Assembly (NCBI GenBank): GCA_963977675.1
Contig: CAXBPY010000008.1
Span: 1,399 to 65,398, forward strand
DNA from: an uncultured bacterium
GTDB taxonomy: Bacteria; Bacteroidota; Bacteroidia; Chitinophagales; UBA10324
DNA: 64,000 nt
Reading direction: 5' to 3'
Within the stretch, counting starts at the first letter, position 1. Every line of letters begins with the position of its first letter. The notes below the pieces were generated by a model. It saw nothing but the letters and a program-made list of their open reading frames with translations, ran no database searches and was not told the DNA's origin. Below are positions 18,682 to 47,490 of this stretch, piece by piece. The translations under genes and the position numbers were made by a program.

Positions 18682-19644
18682 TTGCTTTTATCAAGAAGAA
18701 ATATTCGTATTAAAGTTATGCAAGTGCTTTACTCGCATTTGCAAGACAAAGAAATACCGTACACCAACCTTGAAAAAAACCTTCTGACAAATATTGATGA
18801 AGCTCTCCGTCTTTATCTTTATCAGATTTATCTCCTCTGCAAAACTGCTGAGTTTGCGGTAGAAGACGCCTCCATCAGGTCATCCAAATTTTTACCCAAC
18901 GAGAAAGACAAACAGATTTCTGTTCGCATTTTTCATAACCAGGTGATACAGAGAATTTTTTTGGATGAAGATTTTAAAAAGCAGGTTCATCGCTTTCATT
19001 TTGAACTCTTGATTGATAAAGATTTTATCAGGAAATTTTTTCACGAGTTAAATTCTTCAAAGGAATATGAGCAATATGTAAATGAAAAGAACCCAAGTAT
19101 TCGAGATGATAAAAAGATTCTTTTTTTTCTCTTTCATTCAATTCTTATGAGGAATGAATTGTGCCTTCAACATCTTGAAGACAATTTCAATAATTGGGCT
19201 GACGACACTGTAATTCTTTCAAATCAATTATCTGCCTTTTTAGAAAACATTACCAAACAGTTGGAAAAAGAAGTTGATGAAAAAAAGAGGATTAAGATTC
19301 CGAACAATATGAAAGAAGAAAATGAGTTTGCGTCCGAACTTCTTAACAAAACTTACTACAACGAGCAATATCTTGAAGATTTAATTCAACCCAAACTCAA
19401 AAACTGGGATATGGACCGCGTGGCCCAAACAGATCTAATTGTCATAAAAATGGCAATCGCCGAAATGCTTTACTTCCCATCTATACCGGTGAAGGCAACC
19501 ATGAATGAATATATTGATATTGTAAAAAGCTATTCAACTCCTAAGAGCAATGAGTTTGTGAACGGAATTATTGATCGAATTTTAAAGGACTTACAATCTA
19601 AAAACCTTATTAAGAAAGAAGGCCGAGGATTGATCGAGCTTTGA
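18682..19644 (+). CDS. nusB: Transcription antitermination factor NusB (long Bacteroidota form)
   Basis: RRNIRIKVMQVLY; C-terminal 'WDMDRVA...NEYIDIVKSYSTPKSNEFVNGIID'. Confidence 0.92.
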   Translation: MLLSRRNIRIKVMQVLYSHLQDKEIPYTNLEKNLLTNIDEALRLYLYQIYLLCKTAEFAVEDASIRSSKFLPNEKDKQISVRIFHNQVIQRIFLDEDFKKQVHRFHFELLIDKDFIRKFFHELNSSKEYEQYVNEKNPSIRDDKKILFFLFHSILMRNELCLQHLEDNFNNWADDTVILSNQLSAFLENITKQLEKEVDEKKRIKIPNNMKEENEFASELLNKTYYNEQYLEDLIQPKLKNWDMDRVAQTDLIVIKMAIAEMLYFPSIPVKATMNEYIDIVKSYSTPKSNEFVNGIIDRILKDLQSKNLIKKEGRGLIEL

Positions 19645-19679
19645 TTAATAGTCAGTCACTATTTTATTATTGTTATCTA

Positions 19680-19918
19680 TTCATCGAACGATATATACCC
19701 ATTTAACGAATTATATTATATAATTTGTTTAATTAAATTGATGTAGTAACATCGATTTATTTAGTCCATTCGTCGAAATATTTCAACATATCGTCTTCAA
19801 ATGATTGACTGGAGCGGGTTTGATGGTGTGCAAAAGATTTGATGAATGTCGAAACAAATTTGATTCTTTTTGTCAAATGAAATCAATCATTCATCGAACA
19901 AAAAAAATAATTCATCGA
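19680..19918 (+). promoter_or_regulatory. Array of TTCATCGA-like direct repeats with 21-22 bp period (LytTR-type geometry)
   Basis: TTCATCGA 19680 / TTTAACGA 19702; AACATCGA 19748 / TTCGTCGA 19769 / ATCGTCTT 19790; TTTGTCAA 19869 / TTCATCGA 19890 / TTCATCGA 19911. Confidence 0.65.
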
Positions 19919-19985
19919 CTTACAAATAATTCCTGAAATATGTTTATCAAAAATACGAAGCGCAATAACTAATAAACTACTACCT

Positions 19986-21251
19986 ATGAAACACATCATT
20001 AACATCGAAAGTCGCAACCAAATTACCAATCAGGTTATGACTGAAACGGCCCAAAAGGGAATTGTTCAATTGTCAACTCAAGACAAGGTGCTTGACGGAA
20101 GACAAATTACTGTTAAAGGTAAAAAATTGATTTCTTTCGGTTCTTGCAGCTACCTTGGCTTAGAAACACACCCAGCTTTAAAAGAGGCAAGTAAGGAAGC
20201 AGCTGAAAATTACGGAACTCAGTTTTCATCTTCTCGAGCATATGTTTCTTTAGGATTATATGATAAATTGGAAACCTTGCTCGGAGTAATGTTCAATGCT
20301 CCTGTTATGGTTAGCGCATCCACCAAACTTGGCCATCTGGCAAATATTCCGGTATTGGTTGAAAATCATGATGCTGTTATACTGGACGAACAAGTTCATG
20401 CGAGCGTGCAAATGGCTGTTCAATTATTGAAGGCAAGGAACATTACAGTTGAAATTATTCGTCACAATCGAATGGATATTCTTGAAGAGAAAGTTAGTTC
20501 TTTAAAAGAAAATCATCGTAAAATATGGTACATGGCTGATGGTGTTTATTCAATGTATGGAGATGCTGCTCCTTTAAAAGAAATGATGGAACTTGTATAT
20601 CTCTATCCACAACTTAATTTGTATATTGATGATGCCCACGGATTGAGCTGGAAAGGACTTAATGGTTCAGGAATGGCAAAAACTGTGTTGCCCAGGCATG
20701 AACAGATTTTCATTGCAACATCAATGGCAAAAGCATTTGGAGCAGGAGGAGGAATTATGATTTATCCAAATGATGACTATCGCAGGAAGGTTCGTAAATG
20801 CGGAGGCACAATGATTTTTTCCGGACCAATTCAGCCACCAATTCTTGGCGCCTGCATTGCATCAGCAGAAATTCATTTATCAAACGAGATTTATAAATTA
20901 CAAAATGAGCTTGAAGGAAAGATCAATTATTTTATACAATTAGCTCAACATCTAGAACTGCCTTTAATCAGCAGAAATAATTCACCAATAAAATTCATTG
21001 GTGTGGGTAAACCGGGCATTGGATATAGCATGATCCGTCGACTAATGGAAGCTGGGTATTATGCTAATCTCTCTGTATTTCCAAGCGTAAGCTACAACCA
21101 CACAGGAATACGCCTACCACTGACAAATCATCTGACTTTCGAGGACATAGAAGGATTGTTATACACTGTTGCCGAGCAACTTCCATTAGCGTTAAATGAA
21201 GAGAAGTTTAGTATAAGACAGATTAACCGAGCTTTCAAAATTGCAGTCTAA
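19986..21251 (+). CDS. PLP-dependent alpha-oxoamine synthase family enzyme (BioF/Kbl/SPT/CqsA fold), substrate unknown
   Basis: SCSYLGL, DEQVHAS, HN, DGVYSMYGD, DDAHG, PLP lysine in SMAKAFG, FSGP. Confidence 0.85.
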   Translation: MKHIINIESRNQITNQVMTETAQKGIVQLSTQDKVLDGRQITVKGKKLISFGSCSYLGLETHPALKEASKEAAENYGTQFSSSRAYVSLGLYDKLETLLGVMFNAPVMVSASTKLGHLANIPVLVENHDAVILDEQVHASVQMAVQLLKARNITVEIIRHNRMDILEEKVSSLKENHRKIWYMADGVYSMYGDAAPLKEMMELVYLYPQLNLYIDDAHGLSWKGLNGSGMAKTVLPRHEQIFIATSMAKAFGAGGGIMIYPNDDYRRKVRKCGGTMIFSGPIQPPILGACIASAEIHLSNEIYKLQNELEGKINYFIQLAQHLELPLISRNNSPIKFIGVGKPGIGYSMIRRLMEAGYYANLSVFPSVSYNHTGIRLPLTNHLTFEDIEGLLYTVAEQLPLALNEEKFSIRQINRAFKIAV

Positions 21252-21291
21252 AAAAATCTAAATCTATATCATTAAATCAAAATCTAATTCT

Positions 21292-21723
21292 ATGTATTTT
21301 AAAATTCCAAACCCGGTTACAATTATGATTGTTGATGCATACCGGCAAAACTATGAATTGTTTAAAACCATTGCAGGGTTTTCTGATACACCCGTTAGAT
21401 CTTTTCAAAAGGATAACTTAAATGCTGCTATCAACTATCTTTCTACACCAAACCTCACTAATATTCCTCCTGAAATTATTTTTTGCAATGAGCAAATCGG
21501 AGAACGAAACGGAATTGAGTTTCTTGAAAAGTTTGCTGAAACTAAATATGGAAAAGAAGGAGTGGTTCCTGTTTATTTAATTTCATCTAACAAAGATTCT
21601 AATTCAATTATCAAGTCAGCAAGTGCATTTCAATTCTTCAAAGGAATTTTACAAAACCCGATTCAGATCGATGAACTCAATGAGATTCTTGTTCGCCATA
21701 ATTCAGTGGTGCATAAAGAATAA
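21292..21723 (+). CDS. Stand-alone atypical receiver-domain protein
   Basis: Receiver layout 'IMIVD...PEIIFCNEQIGERNGIEFL...VYLISS...LQNPI'; Asn at both the phospho-Asp and the conserved Lys positions. Confidence 0.7.
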   Translation: MYFKIPNPVTIMIVDAYRQNYELFKTIAGFSDTPVRSFQKDNLNAAINYLSTPNLTNIPPEIIFCNEQIGERNGIEFLEKFAETKYGKEGVVPVYLISSNKDSNSIIKSASAFQFFKGILQNPIQIDELNEILVRHNSVVHKE

Positions 21724-21756
21724 AATTCAGTCTGATTATTTAGTTTAACAAAACGC

Positions 21757-21789
21757 AAAGGCCGTACATTCAAATGAGCGGCCTTTTTT
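21757..21789 (+). terminator. Intrinsic terminator of the synthase-receiver operon
   Basis: AAAGGCCG...CGGCCTTT stem followed by a T run. Confidence 0.75.
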
Positions 21790-21873
21790 ATTCCAGGCCT
21801 TTTATCTCCAAACAAAAAATAATATCGAATTCAAAATTTCTGCTAGAGCTTATTTTATAATTTCATAAAAAAT

Positions 21874-21904: not shown

Positions 21905-22558
21905 TTGAAAAATATTTCTGAAGAAAACTACCTTAAGGCTATCTTCATTCTTAGCGGCAAGAATGATCAGGAGGTATTTACTAACGATCTCGCTCTCTAT
22001 CTGAGCAATAAAGCCGCGTCAGTAACTGATATGCTTAAAAAACTTGCACAAAAAAAATTCGTCAGTTACAAAAAATACAGCGGTGTAACCCTTACTGAAC
22101 AAGGAAAGAAGAAAGCCATTGACATTGTTCGCAAGCATAGACTCTGGGAATTCTTTTTAGTGAATCAGCTTGGATTTACCTGGGACGAAATTCATGAAGT
22201 AGCAGAACAGCTTGAACATATCCAATCAGATTTACTGATCGAGCGACTCGACGCCTACTTGCGGTTTCCACAATCAGATCCTCATGGAGATCCAATTCCA
22301 AATAGAAATGGAAAATTTAAACAAACCAATTCAAAAGCTCTGGCTGAACTTGCTGAAAGATCTAACGCAATTGTTTTTACAGTTACAGATAAACCTGATT
22401 TGCTTCGCTATCTAAGCAAAATTGGAATTGCACTTGGCACAAAAGTTAAGGTGCTTGAGAAAATTCCATTTGATAATAGCTTGTTATTACAATTAAATGG
22501 AAAGAACAAAATTCAGGTCAGCGCAGATATTGCCAAACATATAAAGGTTCAACTATGA
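21905..22558 (+). CDS. mntR: DtxR/MntR metal-dependent repressor with FeoA-like C-terminal domain
   Basis: SEENYLKAI, ASVTDMLKKL, RKHRLWE, AEQLEH, DPHGDPIP. Confidence 0.9.
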   Translation: MKNISEENYLKAIFILSGKNDQEVFTNDLALYLSNKAASVTDMLKKLAQKKFVSYKKYSGVTLTEQGKKKAIDIVRKHRLWEFFLVNQLGFTWDEIHEVAEQLEHIQSDLLIERLDAYLRFPQSDPHGDPIPNRNGKFKQTNSKALAELAERSNAIVFTVTDKPDLLRYLSKIGIALGTKVKVLEKIPFDNSLLLQLNGKNKIQVSADIAKHIKVQL

Positions 22559-24432
22559 GTCAATTAAAATCAACTTCAAAATCATTAGAAGAAGTTCACT
22601 CGACAGTTGACACTATAAAAAAAAGAAACTGGTTACAGACTCTTCTGGCCTTCGCCGGGCCCGCTTATATGGTGAGCGTTGGATATATGGACCCGGGAAA
22701 TTGGGCAACAGATATTGCAGCCGGAAGTGCATTTGGCTACCAGCTAATTTGGGTACTTCTGATGTCTAACCTGATTGCATTATTGCTGCAAAGTCATTGT
22801 GCACGCTTAGGAATAGTTCGAGGCCGTGATCTGGCACAGGCTTCAAAGGAAAATTATCATTCAATCATAAACATCCCGCTTTATGTATTGGCAGAAATTG
22901 CTATTGCTGCCTGTGATCTGGCCGAAGTGCTGGGTCTCGCAATTGGTTTAAACTTACTTTTCCATATTCCACTTTTATACGGCGTTGCATTGGCTGTTCT
23001 TGACTGCTTAGTGCTTTTGCTTTTAATCAATATCGGTATTCGAAAAATGGAGGCATTCATTATTTCGATGGTGGTGATTATGGGGGCTTGCTTTTTTACT
23101 GAACTTGTAATTGCCAAACCCGATGCCCGAGAAATTGTTTCCGGATTTGTGCCAACCAAACTTAATGATGTGGCTCTTTACCTTGCGATCGGAATTATTG
23201 GCGCAACCGTGATGCCTCATAATCTGTATTTGCATTCGGCGCTGGTTCAAACAAGAAAAATTGATCGTTCACCTGGTGGATTGAAGCGTGCGTTTAGGTT
23301 CAATGTAATTGATTCTGCTGTTGCTCTGAATCTAGCGTTGTTTGTTAATGCTGCAATTTTGATCCTCGCTGCTGCAGTTTTTTACACTCGTGGCTTATTC
23401 AATATTGCTGATATTAATGAAGCACATAGATTATTGGAACCTCTGCTTGGTGCTTCATTTGCCCCGGTTCTTTTTGCTATAGCGCTAATTGCAAGCGGGC
23501 AAAGCAGCACCATTACCGGAACTCTTGCCGGCCAGATTGTAATGGAAGGGTATCTCAATCTGCGAATTACACCATGGTTACGAAGACTTATCACTCGAAT
23601 AATTGCTGTGGTTCCGGCGTTTTTAGTCATTTGGTTGAATGGCGAAAATTCAACAGGCGATTTGTTGATTCTGTCTCAAGTCATACTTAGTATGCAATTG
23701 GGATTTGCGATCATTCCGCTCATTCACTTTGTAAGCGATAAAAAAACCATGGGAGAATTTGCAATTGGTCTTCCTTTAAAAATTGCATCATGGATTTCAG
23801 CCATTGTAATTGTAGGATTGAATGTCAAATTGGTTGGAGAAGAAATTTTTTCATTACTTGAAAGCAGTGGAAACTCATGGTGGGTTTATACATTTATTAT
23901 TCCTTCAGCTATTGGGGCTGCCTTGCTTTTATTATATATTACATTTTCTCCGTTTATATCAAAAGCCAATAAAAAACGAATTAGCATTCATCAACTGAAG
24001 ATACCCGAGTTAATCGATCAGGAAGATTTTACACGAATTGCTATCACTCTTGACTTTAGTACAATAGATAGCAAAACAATTTCCCGGGCTGTTTACATTG
24101 GAAATAAGTCCGCCTCTTATCACCTGATTCATGTAGTAGAAAGTGCGGGCGCTATATTAATTGGCTCTCAAACAAGAGATAAAGAAGAAGAAGAAGACCT
24201 GCGACACTTATTTGCTGTTGCTGAAGAACTCTCTCGAAACGGATATCATGTCACTTATGAATTGTGCTTCGGAAAAAGAAGTGATGCGATTGCAAAATCA
24301 GTTCGTGAATTTAATGCGCAACTTCTGGTGATGGGAGCTCATGGCCACAAAGGGTTAAAGGATATTATTCTCGGCGAAACCATTTCACAGGTTCGTCATA
24401 AAGTAAAAATTCCAGTGCTGGCGGTAAATTGA
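22555..24432 (+). CDS. mntH: Nramp Mn2+ transporter with C-terminal universal-stress-protein domain
   Basis: DPGN, MPHNLYLHS, QSSTITGTLAGQIVMEG; USP motif 'LLVMGAHGHKG...GET'. Confidence 0.93.
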   Translation: MSQLKSTSKSLEEVHSTVDTIKKRNWLQTLLAFAGPAYMVSVGYMDPGNWATDIAAGSAFGYQLIWVLLMSNLIALLLQSHCARLGIVRGRDLAQASKENYHSIINIPLYVLAEIAIAACDLAEVLGLAIGLNLLFHIPLLYGVALAVLDCLVLLLLINIGIRKMEAFIISMVVIMGACFFTELVIAKPDAREIVSGFVPTKLNDVALYLAIGIIGATVMPHNLYLHSALVQTRKIDRSPGGLKRAFRFNVIDSAVALNLALFVNAAILILAAAVFYTRGLFNIADINEAHRLLEPLLGASFAPVLFAIALIASGQSSTITGTLAGQIVMEGYLNLRITPWLRRLITRIIAVVPAFLVIWLNGENSTGDLLILSQVILSMQLGFAIIPLIHFVSDKKTMGEFAIGLPLKIASWISAIVIVGLNVKLVGEEIFSLLESSGNSWWVYTFIIPSAIGAALLLLYITFSPFISKANKKRISIHQLKIPELIDQEDFTRIAITLDFSTIDSKTISRAVYIGNKSASYHLIHVVESAGAILIGSQTRDKEEEEDLRHLFAVAEELSRNGYHVTYELCFGKRSDAIAKSVREFNAQLLVMGAHGHKGLKDIILGETISQVRHKVKIPVLAVN

Positions 24433-45714: not shown

Positions 45715-46395
45715 ATGGAGAAAAATAATTTCAAAATTCTTGTAGTGGATGATGAACCGGATATCGTTGAATTCATTGTTTACAATCTGAAGCGCGAAGG
45801 GTACGAAGTATCAAGCGCACATGACGGACTCGAAGGAATTAAAGTAGCGGAAAAAGTAAAGCCGGATCTGATTGTTCTGGATATAATGATGCCGCGACTA
45901 GATGGCGTAGAAGTTTGCGAGCATCTTCGCCGCAATCCTACATTCAAAAACACGCTCATTATTTTCCTCACAGCATTGGGCGACGAGCAATCTGAAATTA
46001 AGGGATTAAATGCTGGAGCAGATGATTATATTGTTAAACCAATTAAACCCAAAATCCTTCTGACTCGTGTTAAAGCCCTTCTGCGCCGGTTATCTCCGGA
46101 CGAGGTAAGTGGAAAAAACCAAATTGGTGATTTTATTATTGATACCGAGCAATACCTGGTTCACTATAAAAAGGATCATTATTCCCTGCCTAGAAAAGAA
46201 TTCGAATTGCTTAATCTTCTTATCTCAAAACCTGGAAAAGTTTTTCACAGAGATGAAATTCTGAACAAGGTATGGGGTACTGAAGTAATTGTTGGCGACA
46301 GAACAATTGATGTTCATATCCGCAAACTGCGCCAACGGTTTGGTGACGACCATATTTCTACAGTTAAAGGAATAGGTTACAAATTCGAAGCTTGA
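45715..46395 (+). CDS. OmpR/PhoB-family response regulator
   Basis: VVDDE, LDIMMP, GADDYIVKP, winged helix 'RTIDVHIRKLR...TVKGIGYKF'. Confidence 0.93.
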   Translation: MEKNNFKILVVDDEPDIVEFIVYNLKREGYEVSSAHDGLEGIKVAEKVKPDLIVLDIMMPRLDGVEVCEHLRRNPTFKNTLIIFLTALGDEQSEIKGLNAGADDYIVKPIKPKILLTRVKALLRRLSPDEVSGKNQIGDFIIDTEQYLVHYKKDHYSLPRKEFELLNLLISKPGKVFHRDEILNKVWGTEVIVGDRTIDVHIRKLRQRFGDDHISTVKGIGYKFEA

Positions 46396-46461
46396 AATTA
46401 TTTGACAACATTCTGAATGTTGCCAAATCTGAAAACTAATTCTGAAGTCATATTTGTTGCA

Positions 46462-47490
46462 ATGAAAAATCCAAAGCCAACATTGCTTGCATTCATTTCT
46501 GCCATCGTAGTCGCTATAGTTGCTTCTTTGCTCACATTTATTTTTTCATCCGAAGCAAAAATTTCAATACTCGTATTTCTCACTTCAATTATTTCAGGGT
46601 ACTTCACATTCCTTTATATTCTTCAGAACTTTATTTACCGGAAAATTAAGCTGGTGTATAAATCCATTCACCAGTTAAAAGCCGGTAGCGATGAAATTTC
46701 ATTGAAACAAAAGTTAAGTGACGACCCGCTTGAAATGGTAAATAAGGAAGTGCTCGAATGGGAAAATGAAAAACTGGGAGAGATTGAGCAACTAAAAAAA
46801 TTGGAGATCTATCGCAAAGAGTTTGTAGCGAATGTGACCCATGAACTAAAAACTCCTCTCTTTAGCATTCAGGGATATATACATACGCTGCTTGACGGTG
46901 CATTGCATGATGAAGAAGTAAATAAAATGTTTTTAGAAAAGGCAGCACGCAATGTAGACCGCCTCACCAATCTGATTGCTGATCTTGAAGCAATAACGCA
47001 ACTTGAATCCGGAAGCTACACACTGGAAAAGGAAGTGTTCGATATTCACTCACTGGTGAAGGATGTGATTGAATCTTTGGAAATGAAAGCAGACAAACGA
47101 AGAATCAGTCTTGCATTTAAGAAAGGTTGCGATAAACCATTTTATGTTTTTGGCGATAAGGATAAAGTCCGGCAAGTGTTAATCAATCTGATTGATAACA
47201 GTATTAAGTATGGAAAAGAAAATGGGAATACAATCATTAGTTTTTATGATATGGATGAAAACATATTGACAGAAATTACCGATGATGGAAATGGAATTGA
47301 AGAACATCATTTAAATCGTTTGTTCGAAAGATTTTATCGCGCTGATAAAAGCCGTTCGAGAGAGATCGGAGGAACCGGTCTTGGTCTCTCAATTGTAAAA
47401 CACATTATTGAAGCACATGACAAAACAATTAATGTGCGCAGCAGAGTAGGAGTGGGTACCACATTCGGGTTTACGCTGGAAAAAAAGTAA
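46462..47490 (+). CDS. PhoR-like sensor histidine kinase
   Basis: Two TM helices, HELKTPL, NLIDNSIKY, DDGNGI, FERFYR, GGTGLGL. Confidence 0.92.
   Translation: MKNPKPTLLAFISAIVVAIVASLLTFIFSSEAKISILVFLTSIISGYFTFLYILQNFIYRKIKLVYKSIHQLKAGSDEISLKQKLSDDPLEMVNKEVLEWENEKLGEIEQLKKLEIYRKEFVANVTHELKTPLFSIQGYIHTLLDGALHDEEVNKMFLEKAARNVDRLTNLIADLEAITQLESGSYTLEKEVFDIHSLVKDVIESLEMKADKRRISLAFKKGCDKPFYVFGDKDKVRQVLINLIDNSIKYGKENGNTIISFYDMDENILTEITDDGNGIEEHHLNRLFERFYRADKSRSREIGGTGLGLSIVKHIIEAHDKTINVRSRVGVGTTFGFTLEKK

Follow-up and report, generated by a model that had tools for sequence, protein, structure and literature searches.

We examined a gene for a pyridoxal phosphate (PLP)-dependent alpha-oxoamine synthase (AOS) in a 64,000-nucleotide stretch of DNA from an uncultured bacterium of the Chitinophagales (contig CAXBPY010000008.1, lineage UBA10324; hereafter the window). 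Together with a gene for a degenerate receiver domain, this intact AOS gene forms a two-gene unit. The enzyme belongs to a clade of Bacteroidota AOS proteins whose genes repeatedly adjoin two-component genes, mostly those for an Rcp1-like stand-alone receiver and a histidine kinase whose sensor is a membrane-embedded domain of several helices. Nested among these kinase-linked relatives, the copy in the window is either a paralog or was acquired; it has lost the kinase adjacency, and a kinase-linked copy is present elsewhere in the genome. We hold this description, of a distinct clade with two-component neighbours and a decoupled copy in the window, with high confidence. A role as a signal synthase is plausible for the window AOS, and we regard the complete explanation, in which the product of this kinase-coupled clade would be a cue that the kinases read, as about evenly poised between right and wrong.

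The window enzyme among alpha-oxoamine synthases

The initial annotation, which was made from the DNA sequence alone, had described a 421-residue PLP enzyme with intact DDAH and SxxK motifs, and this description is accurate. The motifs FGSCSYLGL (residues 51–59), YIDDAHG (213–219) and SMAK (246–249) are all present, and they are invariant in a 26-row alignment of the family. The residues that identify the AOS superfamily, K249 of the SxxK motif, D215 and H218 of the Asp-x-x-His (DDAH) motif, the PLP-stacking H138 and the C-terminal R376, are likewise invariant in the 26 rows. Pfam PF00155 matches the protein with 70.9 bits (cut-off 19.7), and of the 87 columns with a conservation of at least 90% across 89 family rows it retains 86. 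A second family member from the same genome, encoded on contig C15 and 61% identical (the C15 paralog), retains 81 of the 87.

Among the curated NCBIfam models, the top match is NF005697 (PRK07505, ‘hypothetical protein’), which covers nearly the full length of the window AOS (residues 4–398). However this model carries no function, and at 268.6 bits against a cut-off of 342 the window AOS falls short of membership; the cut-off was reached in none of the 14 control genomes. The cut-offs of the models for named classes were all missed. BioF (TIGR00858) gave 157.5 bits against 426.45, Kbl gave 114.6 (TIGR01822, cut-off 493) and 137.1 (NF005394, cut-off 460), serine palmitoyltransferase (SPT) of the CFB type (NF047600) gave 152.9 against 640, ALAS gave 88.9 against 339, and the CqsA/LqsA-type model (NF005526) gave 78.6 against an equivalog cut-off of 428. 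For the cysteate-C-fatty acyltransferases of capnine/sulfonolipid synthesis, the matches to the PDB sequences 28eh and 7u7h reached 61.4 and 54.3 bits.

Ranked by score, the PDB sequences are headed by 8xha with 129.7 bits, an enzyme named Alb29 in an excerpt of PMC11906848, followed by SPT and Kbl at about 84–90, the cysteate acyltransferases at 54–61 and the CAI-1 synthase at about 41.5. Of the 54 PDB sequences with a match at E ≤ 1e-6, those of the CAI-1 synthase are the weakest class, which argues against kinship with CqsA and LqsA. Alb29, a secondary-metabolism AOS of Streptomyces albogriseolus that uses glutamate, is the best solved relative (8xha and related entries), matching residues 34–391 and sharing the same catalytic residues. 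However the similarity is distant, the phylum is a different one, and no biosynthetic gene cluster surrounds the window AOS.

A tree of 99 rows (IQ-TREE quick search, LG+G4, SH-aLRT support only) placed the window family in a clade with support 99, separate from all the reference AOS classes. The references were E. coli BioF and Kbl, the genome's own Kbl and cysteate acyltransferase, an SPT that exceeds its cut-off (L202), and four CqsA-type sequences that exceed theirs (L198–L201). The last four form a clade of their own (support 100) and served as the outgroup, Vibrio and Legionella CqsA/LqsA not being included, and in the outgroup part of the tree some long branches join one another. The window AOS is a member of the family clade, both by this support and by its conserved columns, and these sequence comparisons set it apart from BioF, Kbl, SPT, the cysteate acyltransferases and CqsA/LqsA. 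The initial annotation had called the gene an orphan AOS other than BioF, Kbl or SPT and had named phylogeny as the check; in the tree the window AOS indeed groups with none of these, nor with the CqsA-type synthases. The kinship with CqsA and LqsA that it had suggested fails on the model score, the PDB ranking and the tree alike.

The source genome (2.9 Mb, rated 99.99% complete) has four AOS genes, namely the window copy, the C15 paralog, a Kbl on contig C27 (685 bits) and a gene on contig C45 (L007:6017-7258, minus strand). The product of the fourth scores 601 bits to 28eh and 581 to 7u7h and is the cysteate-C-fatty acyltransferase of capnine/sulfonolipid synthesis, encoded near lpxC-fabZ and lpxA; it stays under every NCBIfam cut-off scanned, and the scanned models included none for this enzyme. 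Neither bioA nor bioB is present over its cut-off in this nearly complete genome, which suggests that the organism is auxotrophic for biotin. With Kbl and the cysteate acyltransferase encoded elsewhere and no bioA or bioB over cut-off, each AOS role known from Bacteroidota is thus either taken by another gene or missing here.

Two-component neighbours and co-inheritance

When one genome per species was scanned, at least 594 relatives of the window AOS came up, and we fetched the loci of the best 80, almost all of them from Bacteroidota metagenome-assembled genomes. An AOS open reading frame (ORF) was called in 76 of these and not in L037, L049, L066 and L076, and for the 76 we clustered up to three ORFs on each side of the AOS. 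Of the 76 loci, 39 have a stand-alone receiver of ~142 residues, which in 33 cases comes immediately downstream and on the opposite strand, and 38 have a histidine kinase with multiple transmembrane (TM) segments. Directly after the kinase, 23 loci have a conserved ORF of ~116 residues (range ~95–130; for example L051:9409-9759) that belongs to no Pfam or NCBIfam family and showed no conserved His among the sequences inspected. Rarer neighbours are MerR regulators (6 loci), a TM-PAS-GAF kinase (4) and LytTR regulators (4), and the one LytTR locus scanned, L016, has an adjoining LytS-type kinase. The initial annotation had proposed to look for kinases and LytTR genes in the neighbourhoods of orthologs, where kinases and receivers are thus found at high frequency together with some LytTR regulators.

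Queried with the single window protein, a metagenome scan returned no matches; queried with the alignment, it returned 80 loci, many of them incomplete, of which 71 have an AOS ORF and 64 at least two called neighbours. Among the 71 loci, a receiver lies within two genes of the AOS in 33, a kinase in 22 and at least one of the two in 37, and the gene order matches that of the species genomes: AOS, opposite-strand receiver, kinase and small ORF. Because the genome of the window has only 13 kinase-core ORFs, we estimate that chance adjacency of an AOS and a kinase would amount to a few per cent.

The common kinase has 2–7 hydrophobic segments (mostly 3–6) in its first ~225 residues. This N-terminus is a conserved domain, and its own hidden Markov model (HMM) matches 37 neighbour ORFs. 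The membrane domains of the kinases fall into no Pfam or NCBIfam family, with only sub-threshold hits to MASE7 and MASE3. The HMM has no matches in the genome of the window, and kinases of the type found beside the C15 paralog do not match it. The C15 paralog (L005:7906-9234) is divergent from a TM-PAS-GAF histidine kinase and a 133-residue receiver (L005:5205-11220) and convergent with a TPR-adenylate/guanylate cyclase gene.

Within the family, the window AOS falls into a 12-row clade (support 97) together with the C15 paralog, the unlinked sequences L101, L114, L115 and L116, and sequences linked to TM-PAS-GAF kinases; the branching order inside this clade has no resolution. The 12-row clade nests in a 17-row clade (support 98), and the other branch of this larger clade is kinase-linked as well, so that kinase linkage looks ancestral and the copy in the window derived. 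The terminal branch of the window AOS measures 0.43, compared to 0.28 for the C15 paralog, and none of the relatives' loci compared shares the layout of the window locus.

The association with kinases also extends to co-occurrence across genomes. In a sample of 41 related genomes the AOS is carried by 13, with 11 of the 24 genomes of the same family and 1 of the 16 from other families of the order being positive. The membrane domain of the C15-type kinase occurs in 11 of the 41, and all 11 are AOS-positive; that is, 11 of the 13 genomes with the AOS have the domain and none of the 28 without the AOS do. Of the two AOS-positive genomes that lack it, G020 has its AOS truncated at the end of a contig and G039 encodes a fused type of AOS. 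Kinase and receiver are divergent from the AOS in seven of the nine relatives' loci that we fetched, as on C15. In G007, AOS and kinase are on different contigs, so an unlinked pair can persist.

The AOS of G007 is the closest genome relative of the window AOS. In its locus (L101:1473-7743) it lies just downstream of ORFs for a putative LanC (369 residues) and a putative large lanthipeptide dehydratase (1059 residues), both judged by eye, and of a 108-residue ORF, and a gene for a 651-residue TPR membrane protein follows it.

The fused AOS proteins have a C-terminal GNAT domain. They are encoded in seven of the 76 loci (L047, L071, L074, L075, L077, L080 and L086; 801–829 residues) and in 12 metagenome loci, with an overall length of 796–882 residues. 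Parachryseolinea silvisoli, the only named cultured isolate noticed in the 80 species-genome loci, has this fused type. In the L047 protein the domain matches PF13480 with 36.8 bits (cut-off 22), and in two Atlas clusters of 118 and 55 members PF13480 is found on 52% and 51%. At L080 the fusion is followed by a protein with a Pfam DUF7793 match and no NCBIfam model, and then by a hybrid kinase; at L184 the AOS and GNAT domains are separate adjacent genes. A GNAT homolog that stands alone is absent from the genome of the window.

The window locus, its pseudo-receiver and its spacer

Table 1. Coordinates of features in the window, counted from its first nucleotide.
Feature	Position	Strand	Basis or remark
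nusB	18682-19644	+	TIGR01951, 96.7 bits (cut-off 88.35)
Spacer between nusB and the AOS gene, 341 nt	19645-19985	+	three exact ATTCATCGA copies; candidate regulatory region
Exact copies of ATTCATCGA	19679-19687, 19889-19897, 19910-19918		two extended to 11 nt
Inverted near-copy of ATTCATCGA	19838-19847
AOS, PLP-dependent acyl/amino-acid condensing enzyme, 421 aa	19986-21251	+	Pfam PF00155, motifs, tree
Pseudo-receiver, 143 aa	21292-21723	+	CheY-like fold; starts 40 nt past the AOS stop
Intrinsic terminator	21757-21794	+	G+C-rich 9-bp stem, inner 3-bp helix, then UUUUUUAUU
Nramp (MntH-like) transporter fused to a C-terminal universal stress protein (Usp) domain	22555-24432
OmpR-type response regulator (226 aa) and small HisKA-HATPase kinase (357 aa)	45715-47490		two-component pair in the window

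The protein encoded behind the AOS had been called a pseudo-receiver in the initial annotation. Its score with PF00072 is 23.2 bits, under the cut-off of 30.2. The AlphaFold model has the (beta-alpha)5 fold of a receiver (pLDDT 86.8), and nearly all of the Foldseek matches listed for it are receiver domains, including 1i3c, 6xvu and 5brj, with a top TM-score of 0.80 (3ilh). Aligned with 13 AOS-linked receivers, the protein has A in place of the second acidic Asp, N in place of the phospho-acceptor Asp and N in place of the conserved Lys. By sequence it therefore lacks what marks a receiver, i.e. an intact acidic pair, the phospho-acceptor Asp, the Lys and a PF00072 score above the gathering level. 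The label is correct, because the fold is kept and the residues required for phosphorylation are replaced.

Homologs of the pseudo-receiver were found by tblastn in none of the 80 species-genome loci, and a search of 5.8 billion proteins returned a single near-identical sequence and nothing else. The best matches that it does have are weak and are receivers of the stand-alone subfamily, among the AOS neighbours and in its own genome alike. Both the pseudo-receiver and the AOS-linked receivers share the single-domain architecture and the fold of the phytochrome-type stand-alone regulators, Rcp1 and the bacteriophytochrome response regulators, but in the window protein two key residues, the phospho-acceptor Asp and the conserved Lys, are missing.

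The terminator proposed for the unit was borne out. The hairpin at 21757-21786, followed by a U-tract, has a dG of -15.1 kcal/mol (z -3.07), and none of 200 shuffles folds equally well; a simple terminator scan, the rule of which permits loops of 3–8 bases only, failed to flag it. Beyond the terminator lie a gene for a DtxR/MntR-family repressor and then the Nramp-Usp transporter gene, which overlaps the stop codon of the repressor gene. The MntR models all remain under their cut-offs (best 157.1 against 350), so of the setting between nusB and mntR that had been described, nusB stands and mntR can be assigned only to the level of the DtxR/MntR family. It had also been stated that the window contains no cognate kinase or LytTR gene. 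None is found beside the AOS, but the window does contain the OmpR-type regulator and kinase pair of Table 1, 24 kb downstream of the AOS locus, a connection of which to the AOS would be hypothetical.

The 341-nucleotide spacer upstream of the AOS may be a regulatory region. The repeat-rich leader of 340 nucleotides that had been reported here does have its three exact repeats, but these are not conserved upstream of relatives: on inspection by eye, no ATTCATCGA motif was seen in front of the C15 paralog or of seven relatives. Genome-wide, the ATTCATCGA 9-mer is not enriched (29 observed, 34 expected), and the spacer is the sole site in the 2.9-Mb genome with three TTCATCGA inside 300 nucleotides. 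The fold of the spacer has a z-score of -2.26, and it has no match in Rfam, which yields one tRNA only for the whole window. In one study, three runs yielded RNA-library contigs (at least 95% identity) that overlay parts of the AOS ORF, and one of the contigs crosses the stop codon of the ORF. Such contigs may derive from DNA and mark neither transcript ends nor expression level; they begin at 19933 and 19961, with 19409-19932 uncovered, and these starts are no indicator of where a transcript starts.

Possible function and rival explanations

We hypothesize that the AOS joins an amino acid and an acyl thioester into an alpha-aminoketone or a derivative of it (a hydroxyketone, pyrazine or N-acyl form), and that this product would act as a cue sensed by the membrane kinases, in a Cqs/Lqs-like manner built from non-orthologous parts. 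The window enzyme might then supply the C15 kinase as a second producer, and the pseudo-receiver might be a phosphorylation-independent accessory. We infer a cue mechanism of this kind because the sensors are membrane-embedded, because the link recurs with unrelated kinase types, because most partner regulators have no DNA-binding output, and because most loci contain no other biosynthetic genes.

In the Cqs and Lqs layouts, a synthase of the AOS family is combined with a multi-helix histidine kinase embedded in the membrane and with a receiver protein that has no DNA-binding domain. At the level of protein families, the AOS clade appears to have the same gene content as CqsA/CqsS in Vibrio and LqsA/LqsR/LqsS in Legionella. 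The window differs from these systems in that its AOS is not of the CqsA type, as the model score and the separate clade indicate, and in that its locus has no kinase. In the GTDB phylum, true CqsA-type genes were found only in family f36, in 27 of 301 genomes (27 of the 63 sampled f36 genomes). The four CqsA-type synthases of our tree score 592–642 bits (cut-off 428) and are flanked by multi-TM kinase-like ORFs. Green sulfur bacteria are known to carry cqsA. Synteny of CqsA homologs with kinases is described for CPR bacteria in an excerpt of PMC7567580. By analogy, the system of the window family may work like Cqs/Lqs while standing outside that family.

Several observations weigh against a product-sensing role. 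A Pfam scan of the neighbouring ORFs found no kinase gene adjoining the window AOS, and thus none of the CqsS/LqsS membrane type; a kinase and a functional receiver within a few genes are found at the C15 paralog and not at the window locus, and the receiver of the window locus is degenerate. The closest relatives (L101, L114, L115 and L116) have no kinase or receiver neighbours, and one of them (G007/L101) sits beside lanthipeptide-type genes. The membrane domains of the two main kinase types are unrelated to each other, and the HMM of the family's kinase sensor domain matched nothing in the partial kinase-like flanks of true CqsA-type genes. The genomes of the co-inheritance sample are related to one another, so the counts are not independent. 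Furthermore, adjacency fits both a kinase that senses the product and a kinase pathway that controls the enzyme, and the GNAT fusions suggest that, for the fused subclade at least, the products are N-acylated lipids.

The initial annotation had read the gene as the producer of a signal or of an unusual amino-lipid. The orphan enzyme and the kinase neighbours of its orthologs support that reading in part; the kinship with CqsA/LqsA is not supported, and the window locus itself has no kinase. A more far-reaching version of the product-sensing explanation is that signalling of this kind is widespread in Bacteroidota, through an aminoketone-derived autoinducer made by the AOS, new families of membrane kinases and stand-alone receivers; the organism studied here would then have two synthases for one kinase, the second of which the pseudo-receiver would modulate independently of phosphorylation. 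We put this version forward tentatively, and would sooner expect it to fail than to hold.

The main rival is a kinase-controlled lipid pathway, and it is favoured by the GNAT fusions. On this account the clade would make a structural or stress amino-lipid, sphingoid-like or an N-acylated aminoketone, and the two-component system would govern envelope remodelling instead of sensing the product. Bacterial ceramide synthesis uses an AOS and then an N-acyltransferase, a logic that the PF13480 matches on the L047 fusion and on both Atlas clusters may resemble, and SPT and Kbl are the next-best PDB classes after Alb29. However, a reductase, an acyl carrier and an acyltransferase are absent near the AOS in most loci, the genome has no free-standing GNAT homolog, and the partner regulators mostly have no DNA-binding outputs. 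The distribution of the AOS within its own family and across the order is also patchy, which is unusual in a core lipid and therefore disfavours such a role. Taking these points together, we consider the lipid pathway rather unlikely.

Improbable in our view is a third explanation, that the window copy is a decaying duplicate without a present function. The loss of the phosphorylation residues from a receiver that has no detectable orthologs would fit decay, as would the longer terminal branch of the AOS and a locus layout common to no relative. However, the AOS reading frame is intact and has kept more of the family-conserved columns than the C15 paralog, the pseudo-receiver is predicted to fold confidently, and RNA-library contigs lie on the ORF, a weak point because the libraries may contain DNA. 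That the gene is a divergent housekeeping BioF, Kbl or SPT is hardly credible, since the general AOS fold, the catalytic residues and the ‘KAPA synthase-like’ label that some sources give to relatives are set against the failure to reach any equivalog cut-off, the separate clade, the Kbl and cysteate acyltransferase encoded elsewhere, the lack of any bioA or bioB over cut-off in a nearly complete genome, and the co-occurrence of the family with a kinase.

The product-sensing explanation bears on a phylum that is dominant in soils, waters and guts and in which chemical cell-to-cell signalling is poorly understood. The family of amino-acid/acyl condensing enzymes to which the window AOS belongs is large, and we found no description of it in the literature searched. 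A phylum-wide synthase family that is linked to, and inherited together with, sensor kinases of at least three kinds makes a concrete and testable system. The family would also add a new functional branch to the alpha-oxoamine synthases, enzymes that attract interest as biocatalysts for C–C bond formation. Should the product prove to be a lipid, the family would instead point to a new lipid pathway under kinase control.

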